Of a stretch of 64,000 nucleotides of DNA, positions 58,010 to 64,000 are shown one piece after another (positions within the stretch are counted from its first letter, which is position 1; the number at the start of each line of letters is the position of its first letter). Both the position numbers and the translations under genes were made by a program. Below the pieces are notes generated by a model that was given only the letters and a program-made list of their open reading frames with translations, made no database searches and had not been told where the DNA came from. Source of the stretch: a virus (Duplodnaviria > Caudoviricetes); IMG/VR virus record IMGVR_UViG_3300003375_000001, positions 64,001-128,000 of that record; one strand, written 5' to 3'.

Positions 58010-58969
58010 ATGAACCAATACGAAACTTACCTACGCCACGTTTTGACAAAGGGTCGCTACAAGACAGATAGAACAGGCACAGGCACCTTGTCGACCTTTG
58101 GGTATCAAATTAGGTTTGACCTCGCTGAAGGTTTCCCTTTGGTCACCACTAAGAAGGTGCACTTCAAGTCTATCGTCACTGAACTGCTGTGGTTCTTGCG
58201 TGGTGACACAAACGTCAAATGGCTGCAGGAACATGGCTGCACAATCTGGGATGAGTGGGCTCGGGCTGACGGGTCACTAGGTCCCGTGTACGGTAAGCAA
58301 TGGCGCGACTGGTCAGGAAAAGTAAGTTTACACCGTAGTGACGTGATTCACCCTTTGTATGCTAACGCGTATCTTGTCGATGAGGATAACAAAGGTGTAG
58401 TTGCTTTTCAGGAACGCATTGATCAATTACAAGACGCCATTACCAAGCTTCGCACTAACCCCGATGACCGTCGTATCATCGTTAGCGCGTGGAACGTTGC
58501 TGATATCCCTGACATGGCTTTACCACCTTGCCATGCATTTTTTCAGTTCTACACTGAGGAACTTACCTTGACGGAACGCGAAGACCTTGCCGCTGCCGAC
58601 GAGATTCCTAAATACTACATGGACGAAAATCATGTACCAACTCGTAGGTTGTCTTGCCAGCTGTATCAGCGGTCCTGCGATTCTTTCCTGGGCGTCCCTT
58701 TCAATATCGCAAGCTATGCATTGCTGACGCATATCATTGCAGCAGAAGTGAACATGGTCGCGGGGGACTTCGTTTGGACAGGGGGTGACTGCCATATCTA
58801 CAACAATCACATGGAACAGGTTCACCAACAGTTGCAACGTGACCCCTACCCCTACCCCACCCTCCTCTTTGTCAACGGCGTCAAGAAATTTGACGAATAC
58901 CTGCCTGGAGATTTTGACGTAGACAAATACGTTCATCACCCCGCCATCAAAGCACCTGTTGCGGTATGA
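58010..58969 (+). CDS. thyA: thymidylate synthase
   Basis: [62 protein letters not shown]. Confidence 0.97.
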
Positions 58970-61181: not shown

Positions 61182-61841
61182 ATGAAACATCGATTAAACC
61201 TACCAGGATTCGATTCCGACGTATGCTGGACAATAGACAAGACCCTAGAACTCTGCTATGGCCATAGGGTGTGGACGCAAGTTCTTGACGATAGATTTTC
61301 TAATGACCTAAAGTGTGCCTGCCGTCATCTACATGGACACGAAGCAAAGATTCAGGTTTACTTATCTGGATCAGAGCTGAATCCTCAAGGCATGCTGACG
61401 GACTTCCGTCATTTGGAATGGGCCAAGAAGTTGTTCAATAGCCTGATCGATCATCAATTTATTATGCACAAGGAAGACCCCTTGTTGCCTATCATTCTAG
61501 ACACCACTAAACCCGGAAGCTATAAGCCTGAGCCTCAGTTTTTAGATCAAGTGCCTCTAGGTAGCTGGACTACAGCCAGCAAGATGTTCCTAGGTACTAG
61601 AGTACTGTATAACGGAACTAACAACGCGGTAAACGAACTGTTTGACGGACTGTTAGTTGTAGACTTTGTTCCTACATCAGAAAACCTAGCCAAATGGGTT
61701 CACTCTATTGTCAACTTCCGTATGTATTCCTTGCAGGTCGCGTGCACCCGCGTGGACTGGTGGGAGACCCCAAAGAGTAGAAGCTCTCATGTTAATACAG
61801 AGTCAATCGCCTGGAATTCAGAGCCAACCTTTACCCTTTAG
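61182..61841 (+). CDS. queD: 6-carboxy-5,6,7,8-tetrahydropterin synthase
   Basis: LCYGHR, C.HLHGH, DF, .DH.F, PTSENLA, WETP.S. Confidence 0.9.
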   Translation: MKHRLNLPGFDSDVCWTIDKTLELCYGHRVWTQVLDDRFSNDLKCACRHLHGHEAKIQVYLSGSELNPQGMLTDFRHLEWAKKLFNSLIDHQFIMHKEDPLLPIILDTTKPGSYKPEPQFLDQVPLGSWTTASKMFLGTRVLYNGTNNAVNELFDGLLVVDFVPTSENLAKWVHSIVNFRMYSLQVACTRVDWWETPKSRSSHVNTESIAWNSEPTFTL

Positions 61842-61847
61842 TAGATT

Positions 61848-62399
61848 ATGGAAAACCACACTTTAACCAATGTCGAAAACGTATCTGCACGTATGTCTGA
61901 TACGATTTTTTCTGTCAAAGCCATAGTGCTGAGAGGTCTTCCAGGGTCTGGTAAGTCTACGTTGTCTAACTGGATAGTAGACACGTTGGCCTTGAAGGGG
62001 TTTACTCCGTTTCAGATTAACGCTGACTTTATTAGGTCAGGCCTTAATGCGCATCTGGGTTTTAGCCATGAGGATCGTATTCGTCAAGCAGAGTCTTTAG
62101 GTCATATAGCGAGGCTAGCCTTGTGCAACAAGTGTCTGCCCGTTGTTGACTTTGTTATGCCTACTGAGGAAACATTACACGCATTTACTAAAGGCTTCGG
62201 TACTGACAACTTCATGGTAGTGTCCATGCGCCCTTACCACGCCACAGACAAAGACAGATATGGGGATACGTCCGCTATATTCGAGGACGACGTTTCTAGC
62301 AGTTGGTACATATCTGACGACAACTGCCTTGAGCTATTCAAGTACAACTTCCAGCGTTACCCTGCCGACTTCTTTGTTCAACACCAATCACAAAATTAA
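61848..62399 (+). CDS. adenylylsulfate (APS) kinase-like P-loop kinase
   Basis: LRGLPGSGKSTL, NAD.IR.GLN..LGFS.EDR..Q...LG.IA.L, F..P; lacks the RDPKGLY lid of CysC. Confidence 0.75.
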   Translation: MENHTLTNVENVSARMSDTIFSVKAIVLRGLPGSGKSTLSNWIVDTLALKGFTPFQINADFIRSGLNAHLGFSHEDRIRQAESLGHIARLALCNKCLPVVDFVMPTEETLHAFTKGFGTDNFMVVSMRPYHATDKDRYGDTSAIFEDDVSSSWYISDDNCLELFKYNFQRYPADFFVQHQSQN

Positions 62400-62400
62400 C

Positions 62401-62835
62401 ATGACAAACTTAACTCGCAATAATCCTCGCATTTGGGTGACCTTTCAGCTTGAAGGCTTCCACAGGTACCCTGACGCACCGGACCAAGTAGCCTACTTGC
62501 GAAATGAACATCGACACATGTTCAACTTCAAGGTGACGTTGGAAGTCACACATGACAACCGTGAAGTTGAATTCCACATGTTTAGGTCAGAACTGATTAG
62601 TCTGTTTGGTAAGAACACCTTACAGATAGATCACAAGTCTTGCGAAATGCTAGCCGCCGACGTAATGAACTACCTGGATATGGCGTATTCAGGGCGCTTT
62701 GCTGAGGTAGAGGTATCAGAAGACGGAGAATGTGGTGCTGTGTTAACACGCCCTAACGTAGAAGACGTGCGTGACGTGGTGAACGACATGCTGGCAGAAC
62801 ACCGTAGGAACTCTCATGATTCATTCGGAGCGTGA
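62401..62835 (+). CDS. dpdL: QueD-like T-fold protein (DpdL-like)
   Basis: EGFHRYP..P..V.YLRNEHRHMF (LxxxHRHxF), DREVEF, SCE.LA, V.VSEDGE.GA; real start 62401. Confidence 0.65.
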   Translation: MTNLTRNNPRIWVTFQLEGFHRYPDAPDQVAYLRNEHRHMFNFKVTLEVTHDNREVEFHMFRSELISLFGKNTLQIDHKSCEMLAADVMNYLDMAYSGRFAEVEVSEDGECGAVLTRPNVEDVRDVVNDMLAEHRRNSHDSFGA

Positions 62836-64000
62836 ATACCATCAAGGCAAATCGCGCTTGGTATTTGCCGGACAAGAGTCACTTAACGGCTATTATCAAA
62901 TAGCCGTTAAGTTTGAAAAGAACAAAAACACGCAGACACTAGTTAGCCGAAACCCCAAGGTGCTAGAGATAAGGCTGCCTGATAGGACTGTGTACGTGTC
63001 GGGCAAGTCATCAAAAAGGTCTACAGTCCTTGATAGAGACGTTGATCTTATAGTGTCTACTAAACGGGACTTGAACCAGCATAAGGAAATGGGGACTGAC
63101 ATGCTTCTGTTCAATCCCATCCATGCGCCTCTTGCTATGGACACCCGTTCATACTTGCGTGAAGGCATAGACGTACTGGTCGACTCTGGAGGGTTTCAGC
63201 TAGCGCAAGGTACGTCAGACTTTGTGTCCCCATTGGAGACCGCTCAGTTCTACACTAAACATGCGTCAATAGGCATGGGGCTAGACTTCCCCTCTCCAGG
63301 TTTTATAGACAAGGCTCTATACGTGGAGAACTGTAGACTACAGGCCCTTAACAACGATTACATCCGTAGAAACATTCCTGACACCGTTAGTATGGCCCCC
63401 GTTGTTCACGGGGTTTCGCCTTTTACGCGCAAGCATTGCCTAGACACAGTTTTTAAGAAAGGCCGTGACAAGGCAATGGCACTCGCGGGCCTTATATCAA
63501 AAAGAACAGACTCGCCAGAGGCATTCAAACAGAGATTCGCGTGCATGGCTATGGTTCTAAATGAAACACGTCAGGACGTCATCTACTATCACGCTCTGGG
63601 AGCAACATCCCCTTGGATGCTGGCGTTGTACGCGCTGCTAACGAAGTCTAACTACGTGGTATCAATTGGTGGAGACTCCGTTAGTCACAGGCAGAATGCT
63701 ATCGGTGGGTCTTACAAGATACTACCGTACTTCAACGGTCCTGTCACCTTAACTCAACCGGTTACAACCAATACGCCTGCCCGACTCCCTTGTAGCTGCC
63801 CCGCGTGTGTAGCCGTAGGGGACGCTCGCATCTTGAGAGACTTTCGCATATCAGAGCTTCATCACTTGTATATGGCTAGTCATCAGAAGGTGTCCATAGA
63901 CAATTGCATTGACGCTTATATAAAGGGTCGGGTGTCGCGTGGGGAGATGTGGAAGTTTGTTATGGGCGATTCCAACCAAGGTTTCCGTACATTACCAAAC
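62816..64000 (+). CDS. dpdA: TGT/DpdA-family guanine transglycosylase, partial (runs off window; absent from ORF track)
   Basis: manually translated open frame from ATG 62816 (AGGA RBS) to the end without a stop: MLLFNPIH, VDSGGFQ, GLDFP, PVVHG, ALAG, YHALG, GGDS, CSCPAC...HH Zn site. Confidence 0.82.
   Translation, partial: MIHSEREYHQGKSRLVFAGQESLNGYYQIAVKFEKNKNTQTLVSRNPKVLEIRLPDRTVYVSGKSSKRSTVLDRDVDLIVSTKRDLNQHKEMGTDMLLFNPIHAPLAMDTRSYLREGIDVLVDSGGFQLAQGTSDFVSPLETAQFYTKHASIGMGLDFPSPGFIDKALYVENCRLQALNNDYIRRNIPDTVSMAPVVHGVSPFTRKHCLDTVFKKGRDKAMALAGLISKRTDSPEAFKQRFACMAMVLNETRQDVIYYHALGATSPWMLALYALLTKSNYVVSIGGDSVSHRQNAIGGSYKILPYFNGPVTLTQPVTTNTPARLPCSCPACVAVGDARILRDFRISELHHLYMASHQKVSIDNCIDAYIKGRVSRGEMWKFVMGDSNQGFRTLPN
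62881..62912 (+). other. perfect 14-bp hairpin inside the transglycosylase coding sequence
   Basis: ACTTAACGGCTATT-ATCA-AATAGCCGTTAAGT. Confidence 0.85.

Follow-up and report, generated by a model that had tools for sequence, protein, structure and literature searches.

A lid-less APS-kinase-like gene within a phage 7-deazaguanine cluster is a candidate PAPS supplier for a sulfated modification

In 64,000 nucleotides of phage DNA (the whole stretch analyzed, hereafter the window), a gene for an APS-kinase-like protein is embedded among genes of 7-deazaguanine modification. Judged by its sequence and structural model, the 183-aa protein is a true APS-kinase homologue, and the gene context suggests that its most likely function is to provide PAPS for a modification that is sulfated and probably carries a sugar. 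Across phages, this kinase family tracks sulfotransferases, not deazaguanine genes.

The four-gene block and its surroundings

Open reading frame calls confirmed the arrangement described in the initial annotation, i.e. four abutting or overlapping genes for QueD, a P-loop kinase, a QueD-like protein and a TGT-fold enzyme, all on the + strand. The queD and kinase genes are separated by 6 nt, the kinase gene and dpdL by 1 nt, while dpdL and dpdA overlap by 20 nt. The dpdA gene exceeds the window by 217 nt, with the first 395 of its 466 codons inside. The relevant features are:

58010-58969, + strand: ThyA, canonical-type thymidylate synthase, 319 aa (PF00303, E 5e-112)
61182-61841, + strand: QueD, 6-carboxytetrahydropterin synthase, 219 aa (PF01242, E 2e-22; motif CRHLHGH)
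61848-62399, + strand: lid-less APS-kinase-like P-loop kinase, 183 aa, candidate PAPS supplier (PF01583, 51.5 bits)
62401-62835, + strand: DpdL, QueD-paralogous T-fold protein and proposed CDG decarboxylase, 144 aa counted from an internal ATG (motif LRNEHRHMF; phrog_17812, E 3e-27)
62816 to window-equivalent 64217, + strand: DpdA-type TGT-fold DNA transglycosylase, 466 aa (profile comparison with PDB)
window-equivalent 65448-66128, + strand, outside the window: h226, sulfotransferase-like, 226 aa (motifs, Atlas features, Foldseek)

The terminator scan gave no + strand terminator-like site within the block; overall, promoter and terminator scans yielded only chance-level signal. The region had no megablast match among GenBank phages. 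Even with the Pfam threshold relaxed to E 10, DpdA and the proteins of 148, 261 and 226 aa remained without a match. Reading on past position 64,000, as had been proposed, revealed QueE and FolE about 8 kb downstream of the block as well as the sulfotransferase-like gene; QueC was not found anywhere in the 238.5-kb phage genome.

The gene identities given earlier (QueD, APS-kinase-like, DpdL, TGT-fold enzyme) agree with profiles and motifs. QueD matched the QueD-like family phrog_2389 (E 9e-30), carries the PTPS motif CxxxHGH as CRHLHGH and is 59% identical to QueD of the relative L013. Its TIGR03367 score (52 bits vs a cut-off of 89) is low, probably because of insertions. In DpdL, the motif YLRNEHRHMF represents LxxxHRHxF in place of CxxxHGH. 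Residues L33, H37, R38, H39, and F41 do not vary when the protein is aligned with homologues that include the DpdL proteins of phiST and ACP17, and tblastn identities were 51% (BCSR5), 47% (ACP17), and 29% (phiST). The initial annotation was correct in describing DpdL as a QueD paralog proposed to decarboxylate CDG: DpdL is defined by LxxxHRHxF as a proposed CDG decarboxylase (PMC10516641). FolE, QueD, QueE, and DpdA without QueC form the gene set expected for a DpdL system.

A DpdA profile built from 22 homologues matched archaeosine TGT (ArcTGT, 1iq8; E 3.4e-8) and also QTRT1 in the PDB. Invariant in these homologues are D123-S-G-G-F-Q128 with the catalytic Asp, the CxCxxC...H zinc site (C326/C328/C331/H349), and D287 as second conserved Asp. 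Although Pfam misses the DpdA of this phage, one homologue carries PF01702; those of Motura and X1 are annotated as TGT and flanked by QueC/QueE/FolE. The protein is not of the phiST DpdA3 type, as an HMM for long DpdA and a phiST gp042 query picked disjoint sets of loci (35 vs 11). A GT4 glycosyltransferase is present at 34 of the 35 long-DpdA (about 460 aa) loci vs none of the 11 DpdA3 loci. Two types of DpdL system can thus be told apart, one in which DpdA3 occurs with no glycosyltransferase and one in which the long DpdA is accompanied by GT4. When only dpdL and dpdA were expressed in E. coli, no dDG was formed (PMC10516641), and therefore a component is missing. For the ACP17 pair used there, GT4 is a concrete candidate.

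Homology, residues and lid of the kinase

The kinase matched PF01583 (APS_kinase) with E 1.5e-13 and 51.5 bits vs a cut-off of 21.1, a match that covers residues 25-125 only. Its scores on the NCBIfam equivalog (49.7 vs 138.7 bits) and subfamily (50 vs 163) models are below both cut-offs. A profile of the kinase family aligned over the full length with the APS-kinase domain of PAPSS1 (E 1e-29). For the AF2 model (pLDDT 86.8), every one of the top 50 PDB matches was an APS kinase (E about 1e-8, TMq 0.58-0.68).

The earlier description of the kinase as lid-less holds. A 16-residue deletion falls exactly at DVKGLYKKARAGEIKG of PAPSS1, and the lid is gone together with its catalytic lysine, which in APS kinases lies at the gamma-phosphate; in this alignment, the lid arginine, the residue stacking on ATP, is kept as R137. 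The same short spacing was found in 78 of 79 IMG/VR relatives. The accompanying claim that RYGDTSAIFE had replaced RDPKGLY was not upheld, because in the profile alignment the retained arginine runs straight into the equivalent of FTGIDSxYE.

Roles of APS-site residues were taken from Mycobacterium tuberculosis CysC structures (PMC4373884), where the second Asp of LDGD is the catalytic base at the 3′-OH of APS, the lid residue Lys562 stabilizes the transferred phosphate, and lid closure is reported to be essential for activity. Conservation was assessed across 33 diverse family members. The Walker A motif (GLPGSGKS, residues 30-37; family consensus GLPGSGK[ST]T) has G30, P32, G33, G35, and K36 invariant. 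LDGD appears as INAD: the second, catalytic Asp (D60) is invariant, and the first is replaced in the phage clade by a nearly invariant Asn (N58). R63, F72, and R77 of the R..LGF..DR block are likewise invariant, as is D101, a new Asp within VDFVxP. At the FTGID position, the kinase has Y139 (F or Y across the family) followed by invariant D140-T141.

Two other assignments were considered for this protein. Identity with the 5-hmdU DNA kinase was rejected, because in relatives the cluster with this kinase also has an HMUDK gene of its own. Likewise, phiST gp041 (AAA_18) was discarded as a homologue, since neither the kinase profile nor phmmer connects the two.

Genomic partners of the kinase and the putative sulfotransferase

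The lid-less viral clade comprises at least 272 loci in IMG/VR, of which 80 kinase loci were used for neighbor analysis. Unbiased clustering of neighboring genes placed a Sulfotransfer_3/1 family among the two commonest families. Targeted HMM searches recognized sulfotransferase genes at 29 of the 80 loci and none at the other 51; in 19 of the 29, the gene lies immediately upstream of the kinase and overlaps its start, in keeping with translational coupling. The signal spans 13 of 31 kinase clusters (70% identity clustering). Moreover, a nucleotidyltransferase-like domain with HxGH is fused to the kinase in 42 of 79 relatives, which recalls the layout of bifunctional PAPS synthase. In the nearest subfamily (40-53% identity; L015, L017, L099, and phiRSL1), Sulfotransfer_2 occurs in the same DNA-modification cluster as the kinase, and L013 carries an h226 homologue as its sulfotransferase-like gene. 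A sulfotransferase was present in all five of the closest contexts with enough flanking DNA.

The suggested check for co-occurrence with dpdL/dpdA turned out negative. Que genes were found at only 1 of 80 kinase loci, and the kinase family at 0 of 80 DpdL loci. Nearly all homologous kinases are from phages lacking deazaguanine genes, an outcome that the initial annotation had named as refuting. Among complete genomes, this phage and phiRSL1 both encode kinase and sulfotransferase, and the four DpdL/DpdA phages BCSR5, X1, ACP17, and Motura have neither, genome-wide.

The gene has a different neighbor in related contigs. It lies directly upstream of a ThyA homologue in L013, L015, L017, and L099, with genes overlapping or abutting, and one gene away from it in L100; the upstream neighbors vary among these contigs. 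In L013, the closest syntenic relative, queD, dpdL, and dpdA are contiguous and the kinase is 4 kb off, beside thyA. The ThyA of our phage is 55% identical to that of L100, which adjoins DHFR; tblastn at E 1e-3 connected it to none of the HMUDK-linked ThyA homologues. In this lineage, the kinase gene has moved from its place upstream of thyA, the ancestral neighbor, to the site between queD and dpdL, and its present location does not point to a part in making deazaguanines. Being neighbors within a modification operon can thus be misleading. Due to this relocation, the kinase gene now shares a + strand block with its presumed sulfotransferase partner.

That partner, h226, is the third gene after dpdA. 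Near it, the block encodes two GT4 glycosyltransferases and a PIG-L-like deacetylase, and it further includes a HAD phosphatase and a radical-SAM/SPASM enzyme. Relatives have, directly after dpdA-h148, a sulfotransferase from another family (Pfam Sulfotransfer_2 in L102, a weak match in L101). The relative L103 carries a carbamoyltransferase instead. The h226 profile is shallow, as an exhaustive phmmer search gave only nine relatives; a PR[ST]x[ST][ST] loop and the pair R102...S110 are invariant in nine sequences. In our reading, these elements are spaced like the 5′-PSB and 3′-PB motifs of sulfotransferases. Atlas features placed h226 at 0.95-0.96 to sulfotransferase clusters. The top Foldseek match of its model was the Stf0 sulfotransferase (1tex), not separable from NMP-kinase folds. 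In the VIA search, P-loop kinases tied with sulfotransferases (Z about 10), the latter aligning over 180-194 residues of h226 vs about 150 for kinases. NDST and HS 2-O-sulfotransferase domains were among the full-length structural matches.

Proposed role, alternatives and comparison with known systems

On balance, sequence and model suggest that the kinase probably turns host-made APS into PAPS for a phage sulfotransferase, here h226. The initial annotation had included PAPS supply for a sulfated modification among its proposals, and the gene context (sulfotransferase neighbors elsewhere, h226 downstream here) speaks for it. In the proposed route, FolE, QueD, and QueE would make CDG, on which DpdL and the long DpdA would act next, without QueC, so that a deazaguanine-derived base would be put into DNA. 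A sugar would be added to this base and then deacetylated, as in GlcNAc to GlcN, and subsequently sulfated with PAPS, in the deacetylase-then-sulfotransferase order of heparan-sulfate NDST. ATP sulfurylase and CysD were not found in the phage genome; APS would come from the host. The analysis establishes the homology, fold, and lid deletion of the kinase together with gene order and co-occurrence counts, and from these we infer the activity of the kinase on APS, the role of h226 as sulfotransferase, and DNA as final acceptor. Against this reading stand the deletion of the lid lysine equivalent to Lys562, the Asn in place of the first Asp of LDGD, the low NCBIfam scores, the tied fold search and missing Pfam match of h226, and the 51 of 80 kinase loci at which no sulfotransferase was recognized; a molecule other than DNA might also be the acceptor.

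Could the kinase instead serve the deazaguanine pathway? It might phosphorylate a 7-deazaguanine nucleoside or nucleotide, or aid the DpdL step, in a pre-replicative or ATP-dependent pathway variant. Spacers of just 6 nt and 1 nt separate the gene from queD on one side and dpdL on the other, P-loop NTPases of other families adjoin dpdL elsewhere (AAA_18 gp041 in phiST; AAA_28 in BCSR5, L103, and L112), and the lid deletion could alter specificity. The failure of dpdL plus dpdA to give dDG in E. coli, which implies a missing component (PMC10516641), would also fit, but GT4, found at 34/35 long-DpdA loci, is the better candidate for it. The distribution of the family tells strongly against such a role, with Que genes at 1/80 kinase loci, the kinase at 0/80 DpdL loci, and four complete DpdA/DpdL phage genomes lacking it. 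Furthermore, L013 has contiguous queD-dpdL-dpdA with the kinase 4 kb away by thyA, and the residues with which APS kinase stacks on the adenine and binds the phosphosulfate do not vary in the family. We therefore regard this role, which the initial annotation had also put forward, as highly improbable.

The ThyA association raises the alternative that the close subfamily consists of pyrimidine nucleotide kinases that act on dTMP or hm-dUMP in connection with thymidylate synthase. This genome encodes ThyA and no recognizable thymidylate kinase, and the kinase gene overlaps or abuts that of a ThyA homologue in L013, L015, L017, and L099 and is one gene apart in L100. Since all these contigs come from a single lineage of jumbo phages, the two genes may be neighbors through synteny retained by descent; across the broad family, only 1 of 80 loci has ThyA close to the kinase, and in our phage the gene has left thyA. 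The top fold matches are all APS kinases, not Tmk, the residues sandwiching the APS adenine are invariant, and a sulfotransferase occurs in every close context with enough flank. Such a function appears unlikely. About as unlikely is a non-catalytic or regulatory protein that binds APS/PAPS, handing over or sensing PAPS rather than making it. Fungal ATP sulfurylase has an APS-kinase-like allosteric domain that binds nucleotide, and the phage protein has lost both the first Asp of LDGD and the lid with the Lys562 equivalent, whose closure is essential in canonical enzymes. However, Walker A (GLPGSGK[ST]T), D60, and D101 are strictly conserved in 33 divergent sequences, the pattern expected of an active phosphotransferase, and the HxGH nucleotidyltransferase-like fusions of 42/79 relatives resemble bifunctional PAPS synthase.

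Extending the reading of the kinase as a PAPS supplier, we tentatively suggest, as a rather speculative scenario, that guanine is replaced by a 7-deazaguanine derivative bearing an amino sugar, that this sugar then receives sulfate from PAPS made by the lid-less kinase, and that the same kinase-sulfotransferase pair decorates hypermodified thymidine in phiRSL1-like relatives. If true, it would be the first case of sulfation on a base in DNA, and sulfation would be a modular, swappable DNA decoration; if the pair acts on DNA-linked sugars, a strongly anionic decoration would join the anti-restriction modifications of phages. To our knowledge, DNA with a sulfated nucleobase has not been described. 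A literature search found nothing on a sulfated DNA base, nor work joining a phage sulfotransferase or APS kinase with DNA hypermodification, a sulfotransferase with HMUDK or cysC AMGs, or phiRSL1 with a phosphosulfate kinase, and none of the literature found links lid-less clade members to PAPS experimentally. As predicted APS kinases, the clade challenges the view that these enzymes cannot do without lid closure.

Like phiST, for which dDG was shown, and ACP17, for which it was predicted (PMC10516641), this phage has FolE, QueD, QueE, DpdL, and DpdA but no QueC. Unlike phiST, its DpdA is of the long type with GT4, not DpdA3. Its lineage differs from known DpdL systems by adding h148, the rSAM/SPASM, PIG-L-like, and HAD proteins, a second GT4, the sulfotransferase-like protein, and the APS-kinase-like gene. 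The 80 other DpdL loci contain nothing of this extra set.

In common with CysC and the PAPS synthase kinase domain (human PAPSS1, 2ofx; M. tuberculosis CysC, 4bzp), the kinase keeps the fold, a full-length alignment, the P-loop, the catalytic Asp, and R..LGF..DR with the second aromatic residue sandwiching the APS adenine; the reaction APS + ATP -> PAPS is presumed. In contrast to CysC, it lacks the lid including the KGLY lysine, has Asn for the first LDGD Asp, and shows VDFV(M/C)PT with the new invariant Asp in place of FISP. The clade is viral, scores far under the NCBIfam cut-offs, and frequently has a sulfotransferase gene as partner.

The combination of kinase, sulfotransferase, and glycosyltransferases in a DNA-modification cluster also occurs in phiRSL1 (ORF230-238) and the metagenomic L015, L017, and L099, related jumbo phages whose kinases are the nearest homologues of this one (33-48% identity). 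These clusters contain a divergent, presumably hydroxymethylase-type ThyA homologue and a 5-hmdU DNA kinase (HMUDK_hel), as well as TAGT in L015, L017, and phiRSL1. Unlike such thymidine-hypermodification clusters, our phage has a canonical-type ThyA, deazaguanine genes as the base, and no HMUDK (PF18723 was not found in its genome). Finally, heparan-sulfate NDST acts as N-deacetylase and then N-sulfotransferase, and in MshA/MshB and BshA/BshB a GT4 enzyme is followed by an LmbE/PIG-L deacetylase. By analogy, the cluster combines GT4, a PIG-L-family deacetylase, and a predicted PAPS-dependent sulfotransferase-like protein; it differs from these systems in having no sequence-level membership in them and in its acceptor, which would be a DNA-linked or deazapurine-linked sugar.

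The deazaguanine block and its downstream genes

The genome of this uncultured phage is complete (238,517 bp, with direct terminal repeats), and the window corresponds to its bases 64001-128000. A 16-kb stretch across the window end was analysed as locus L002, whose coordinates convert to window coordinates by adding 59999. The block of four genes was present as initially described. These genes and two located further downstream are, in window or window-equivalent coordinates:

61182-61841, + strand: QueD (PF01242, E = 2e-22), with the canonical CRHLHGH motif
61848-62399, + strand: kinase, a 183-aa P-loop protein (Pfam APS_kinase)
62401-62835, + strand: DpdL, with YLRNEHRHMF; its start is an internal ATG, one base past the kinase stop
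62816 to 217 nt beyond the window, + strand: DpdA (TGT-fold), 466 aa, with a profile match to archaeosine TGT
65448-66128, + strand: h226, a putative sulfotransferase of 226 aa
69987-71147 (L002:9988-11148, outside the window), + strand: GT386, a GT4 glycosyltransferase of 386 aa

The assignment of the QueD paralog to DpdL is confirmed, as YLRNEHRHMF fits LxxxHRHxF, the signature separating DpdL from QueD (Cui et al. 2023, PMC10516641), and the founding DpdL proteins, those of phages phiST (29%) and ACP17 (47%), are homologues. A Pfam search of the 466-aa DpdA gave no match. With a profile of 22 DpdA homologues, matches were obtained to QTRT1 and to the archaeosine tRNA-guanine transglycosylase 1iq8 (E = 3.4e-8). 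Invariant in this profile were DSGGFQ, a zinc site of the form CxCxxC...H and, as a second Asp, D287.

Downstream of dpdA, the same strand encodes, in order, proteins of 148 aa, 261 aa and 226 aa (h226), a GT4 glycosyltransferase (364 aa), a radical-SAM/SPASM protein, a PIG-L-like protein, a DUF723 ORF, GT386, a HAD phosphatase, QueE and FolE. Of the genes sought past position 64000, QueE, FolE and a sulfotransferase-like gene (h226) were found; QueC is absent from the phage genome. The 148-aa protein (h148; L002:4214-4660, window-equivalent 64213-64659) carries a basic C-terminal tail. It directly follows dpdA in this phage, L013, L101, L102, L103 and BCSR5, and may be a DpdA partner. The DUF723/zinc-ribbon ORF (329 aa; L002:9018-10007, window-equivalent 69017-70006) lies between the PIG-L-like and GT4 genes and may be a mobile insertion; in the relative L014, the GT4 gene directly follows the radical-SAM gene, with neither a DUF723 ORF nor a PIG-L-like gene between them.

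Where a DpdL system has the long DpdA, GT386 is almost always present as well. Among 80 DpdL loci (the best of at least 576), it accompanied long DpdA in 34 of 35 cases and phiST-type DpdA3 in none of 11, at a median distance of 1 kb from dpdL. DpdL systems therefore split into two types. Expression of ACP17 dpdL and dpdA in E. coli yielded no dDG (PMC10516641), and GT386 may be the component missing from that reconstitution. In the Atlas, clusters of tRNA-queuosine mannosyltransferases are among the named neighbours closest to GT386 (feature score 0.97, TM 0.77), a likeness that serves as a lead only.

A lid-less APS-kinase homologue

APS_kinase was the sole significant Pfam family for the kinase (51.5 bits vs a gathering score of 21.1), covering residues 25-125 only. 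A profile built from 11 close homologues matched the human PAPSS1 APS-kinase domain over its full length (E = 1e-29). This alignment contained one large gap, a 16-residue deletion at DVKGLYKKARAGEIKG corresponding to the lid. RYGDTSAIFE had been taken for a replacement lid, a reading that the alignment does not bear out: with the deletion so placed, this stretch comprises the kept arginine followed directly by the equivalent of FTGIDSxYE. All of the top 50 PDB matches of the AlphaFold model (pLDDT 86.8) were APS kinases.

Published structures of M. tuberculosis CysC (PMC4373884) served to assign residue roles. All of 33 diverse members share D60 (the catalytic Asp in LDGD), the Arg, Phe and Arg of R..LGF..DR, and the second aromatic residue sandwiching the APS adenine. 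The deletion takes with it the lid lysine that contacts the gamma-phosphate; LDGD has Asn in place of its first Asp, and a new invariant Asp (D101) occurs in VDFVxPT. D101 and R29, a residue of the subfamily, are candidates for taking over from the lost lysine. The protein passes the Pfam threshold, not the NCBIfam thresholds, and lacks the mobile lid of APS kinases. Given the retained APS-site residues, the lost lid and this split between databases, we regard the kinase as belonging to a divergent APS-kinase clade.

Genomic company of the kinase family

Scanning IMG/VR for kinase relatives returned at least 272 loci. The relatives in the best 80 were lid-less (same short spacing in 78 of 79), and QueD, QueE or FolE occurred within 10 kb of the kinase in one of these 80 loci. 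Conversely, a scan with a DpdL alignment returned at least 576 loci, the best 80 of which contained neither the kinase nor any sulfotransferase. The kinase does not go with deazaguanine genes, tested from both directions, and the suggested check for co-occurrence with dpdL/dpdA thus came out negative. In the closest context (L013/L014; kinase 53% identical, synteny over about 25 kb), queD, dpdL and dpdA directly adjoin one another, with a 1-nt spacer; the kinase gene is found 4 kb upstream, where it shares 4 nt with thyA. As it is also located at thyA in the more distant relatives L015, L017, L099 and L100, the slot between queD and dpdL represents a derived relocation in this phage. In L013, a LAGLIDADG endonuclease gene interrupts thyA (L013:10525-12467), leaving pieces of 223 aa and 98 aa; the thyA gene of the window (58010-58969) is continuous.

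Unbiased clustering of five genes on each side of the 78 IMG/VR kinases placeable in their loci gave DUF2061, a small membrane protein, as the most frequent neighbour (21 of 78 loci, usually as the first gene downstream). The other top neighbour was the Pfam Sulfotransfer_3/Sulfotransfer_1 family (19 loci, in 15 immediately upstream); a 2OG-Fe(II) oxygenase family was frequent as well (13 loci). With iterative HMMs, a sulfotransferase was detected in the flank of 29 of the best 80 loci (out of at least 272), in 19 of them directly upstream and overlapping the kinase start; of the 31 kinase clusters formed at 70% identity, 13 showed the signal. In the close subfamily (L015, L017, L099 and jumbo phage phiRSL1), Sulfotransfer_2 shares a cluster with the kinase. 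In the complete genomes compared, kinase and sulfotransferase occur either together or not at all: both in phiRSL1 and in this phage (here the candidate h226), neither in BCSR5, Xanthomonas phage X1, ACP17 and Motura, three of which are DpdL phages.

We also noted that 42 of 79 kinase relatives carry a fused domain at the C terminus, about 105 aa long and containing GRYQPWHEGH...ISAT motifs (e.g. L022:8473-9225; weak match to Pfam CTP_transf_like), and that 12 further loci encode a small stand-alone version just downstream. By analogy with bifunctional PAPS synthase, which this kinase-plus-nucleotidyltransferase architecture resembles, the pair may form a minimal viral sulfate-activation module.

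These contexts bear on other readings of the kinase. Action on a deaza-nucleoside or nucleotide, as initially suggested, fits poorly with a family found almost entirely outside deazaguanine loci (1/80 and 0/80 in the two scans); what still speaks for it is that the gene adjoins queD and dpdL and that unrelated P-loop proteins recur beside dpdL, AAA_18 in phiST and AAA_28 in BCSR5, L103 and L112. These genes (L010:5290-5787, phiST gp041; L003:4078-5004, BCSR5; L103:3985-4833; L112:11375-12244) belong to other families and are not homologous to the kinase. In BCSR5, the AAA_28 gene is followed by a PP-loop (PAPS_reduct-like) protein with an X1 homologue near FolE; L103 has a DUF6071 protein at that position. 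The thyA adjacency in relatives and the absence of a recognisable Tmk gene from this genome would suggest a thymidylate-linked kinase, a reading contradicted by the fold, by conservation of the adenine pocket and by the contexts of the broad family. Loss of the lid lysine might likewise suggest a non-catalytic binder, but the phosphotransfer core is strictly conserved.

A putative sulfated decoration

h226 has few relatives and no Pfam match. An invariant loop, PR[ST]x[ST][ST], has no Walker lysine and is similar to a sulfotransferase 5'-PSB loop, and by our own motif reading an invariant Arg...Ser pair stands at 3'-PB spacing. Atlas features placed it among Stf0/Sulfotransfer_3 clusters (0.95-0.96), and the best Foldseek match was an Stf0 sulfotransferase. 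In VIA, kinases and sulfotransferases tied (Z about 10), the latter aligning over the whole length. In relatives found through DpdA, the slot after dpdA-h148 holds a different sulfotransferase family (Pfam Sulfotransfer_2 in L102, weak in L101). On these grounds, h226 is probably a sulfotransferase. L103, with the same DpdL/DpdA/GT4/rSAM core, has neither sulfotransferase nor kinase and encodes a carbamoyltransferase (L103:5625-7133), which suggests that decoration modules are interchangeable.

The kinase would produce PAPS for the sulfotransferase; since the genome encodes no ATP sulfurylase, APS must be supplied by the host. A host with the APS-reductase route and no cysC would account for a phage-borne kinase. 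The sulfotransferases neighbouring the family lend contextual support to the earlier proposal of PAPS for a putative sulfated modification.

In phiRSL1, L015, L017 and L099, the cluster holding the lid-less kinase is a thymidine-hypermodification set comprising HMUDK_hel, Sulfotransfer_2, glycosyltransferases (TAGT among them in L015, L017 and phiRSL1), as well as a divergent homologue of ThyA that is presumably a dUMP hydroxymethylase. Sugar-nucleotide enzymes also occur there (L005, i.e. phiRSL1 ORF230-238, L015, L017 and L099). Possibly, these clusters direct a sulfated, glycosylated thymidine hypermodification. As this genome lacks HMUDK and its ThyA is of the canonical type, a hydroxymethyl-pyrimidine acceptor is unlikely here. 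The gene company, a pair of GT4 enzymes with a deacetylase of the PIG-L family in a DNA base-exchange operon, would indicate an acceptor made by GT4 and then deacetylase action, with the sulfotransferase acting on the deacetylated product. GT4-then-deacetylase logic is known from mycothiol and bacillithiol synthesis, and a deacetylase-then-sulfotransferase step from heparan-sulfate NDST; the likeness of these systems to the gene set of this operon is one of analogy only.
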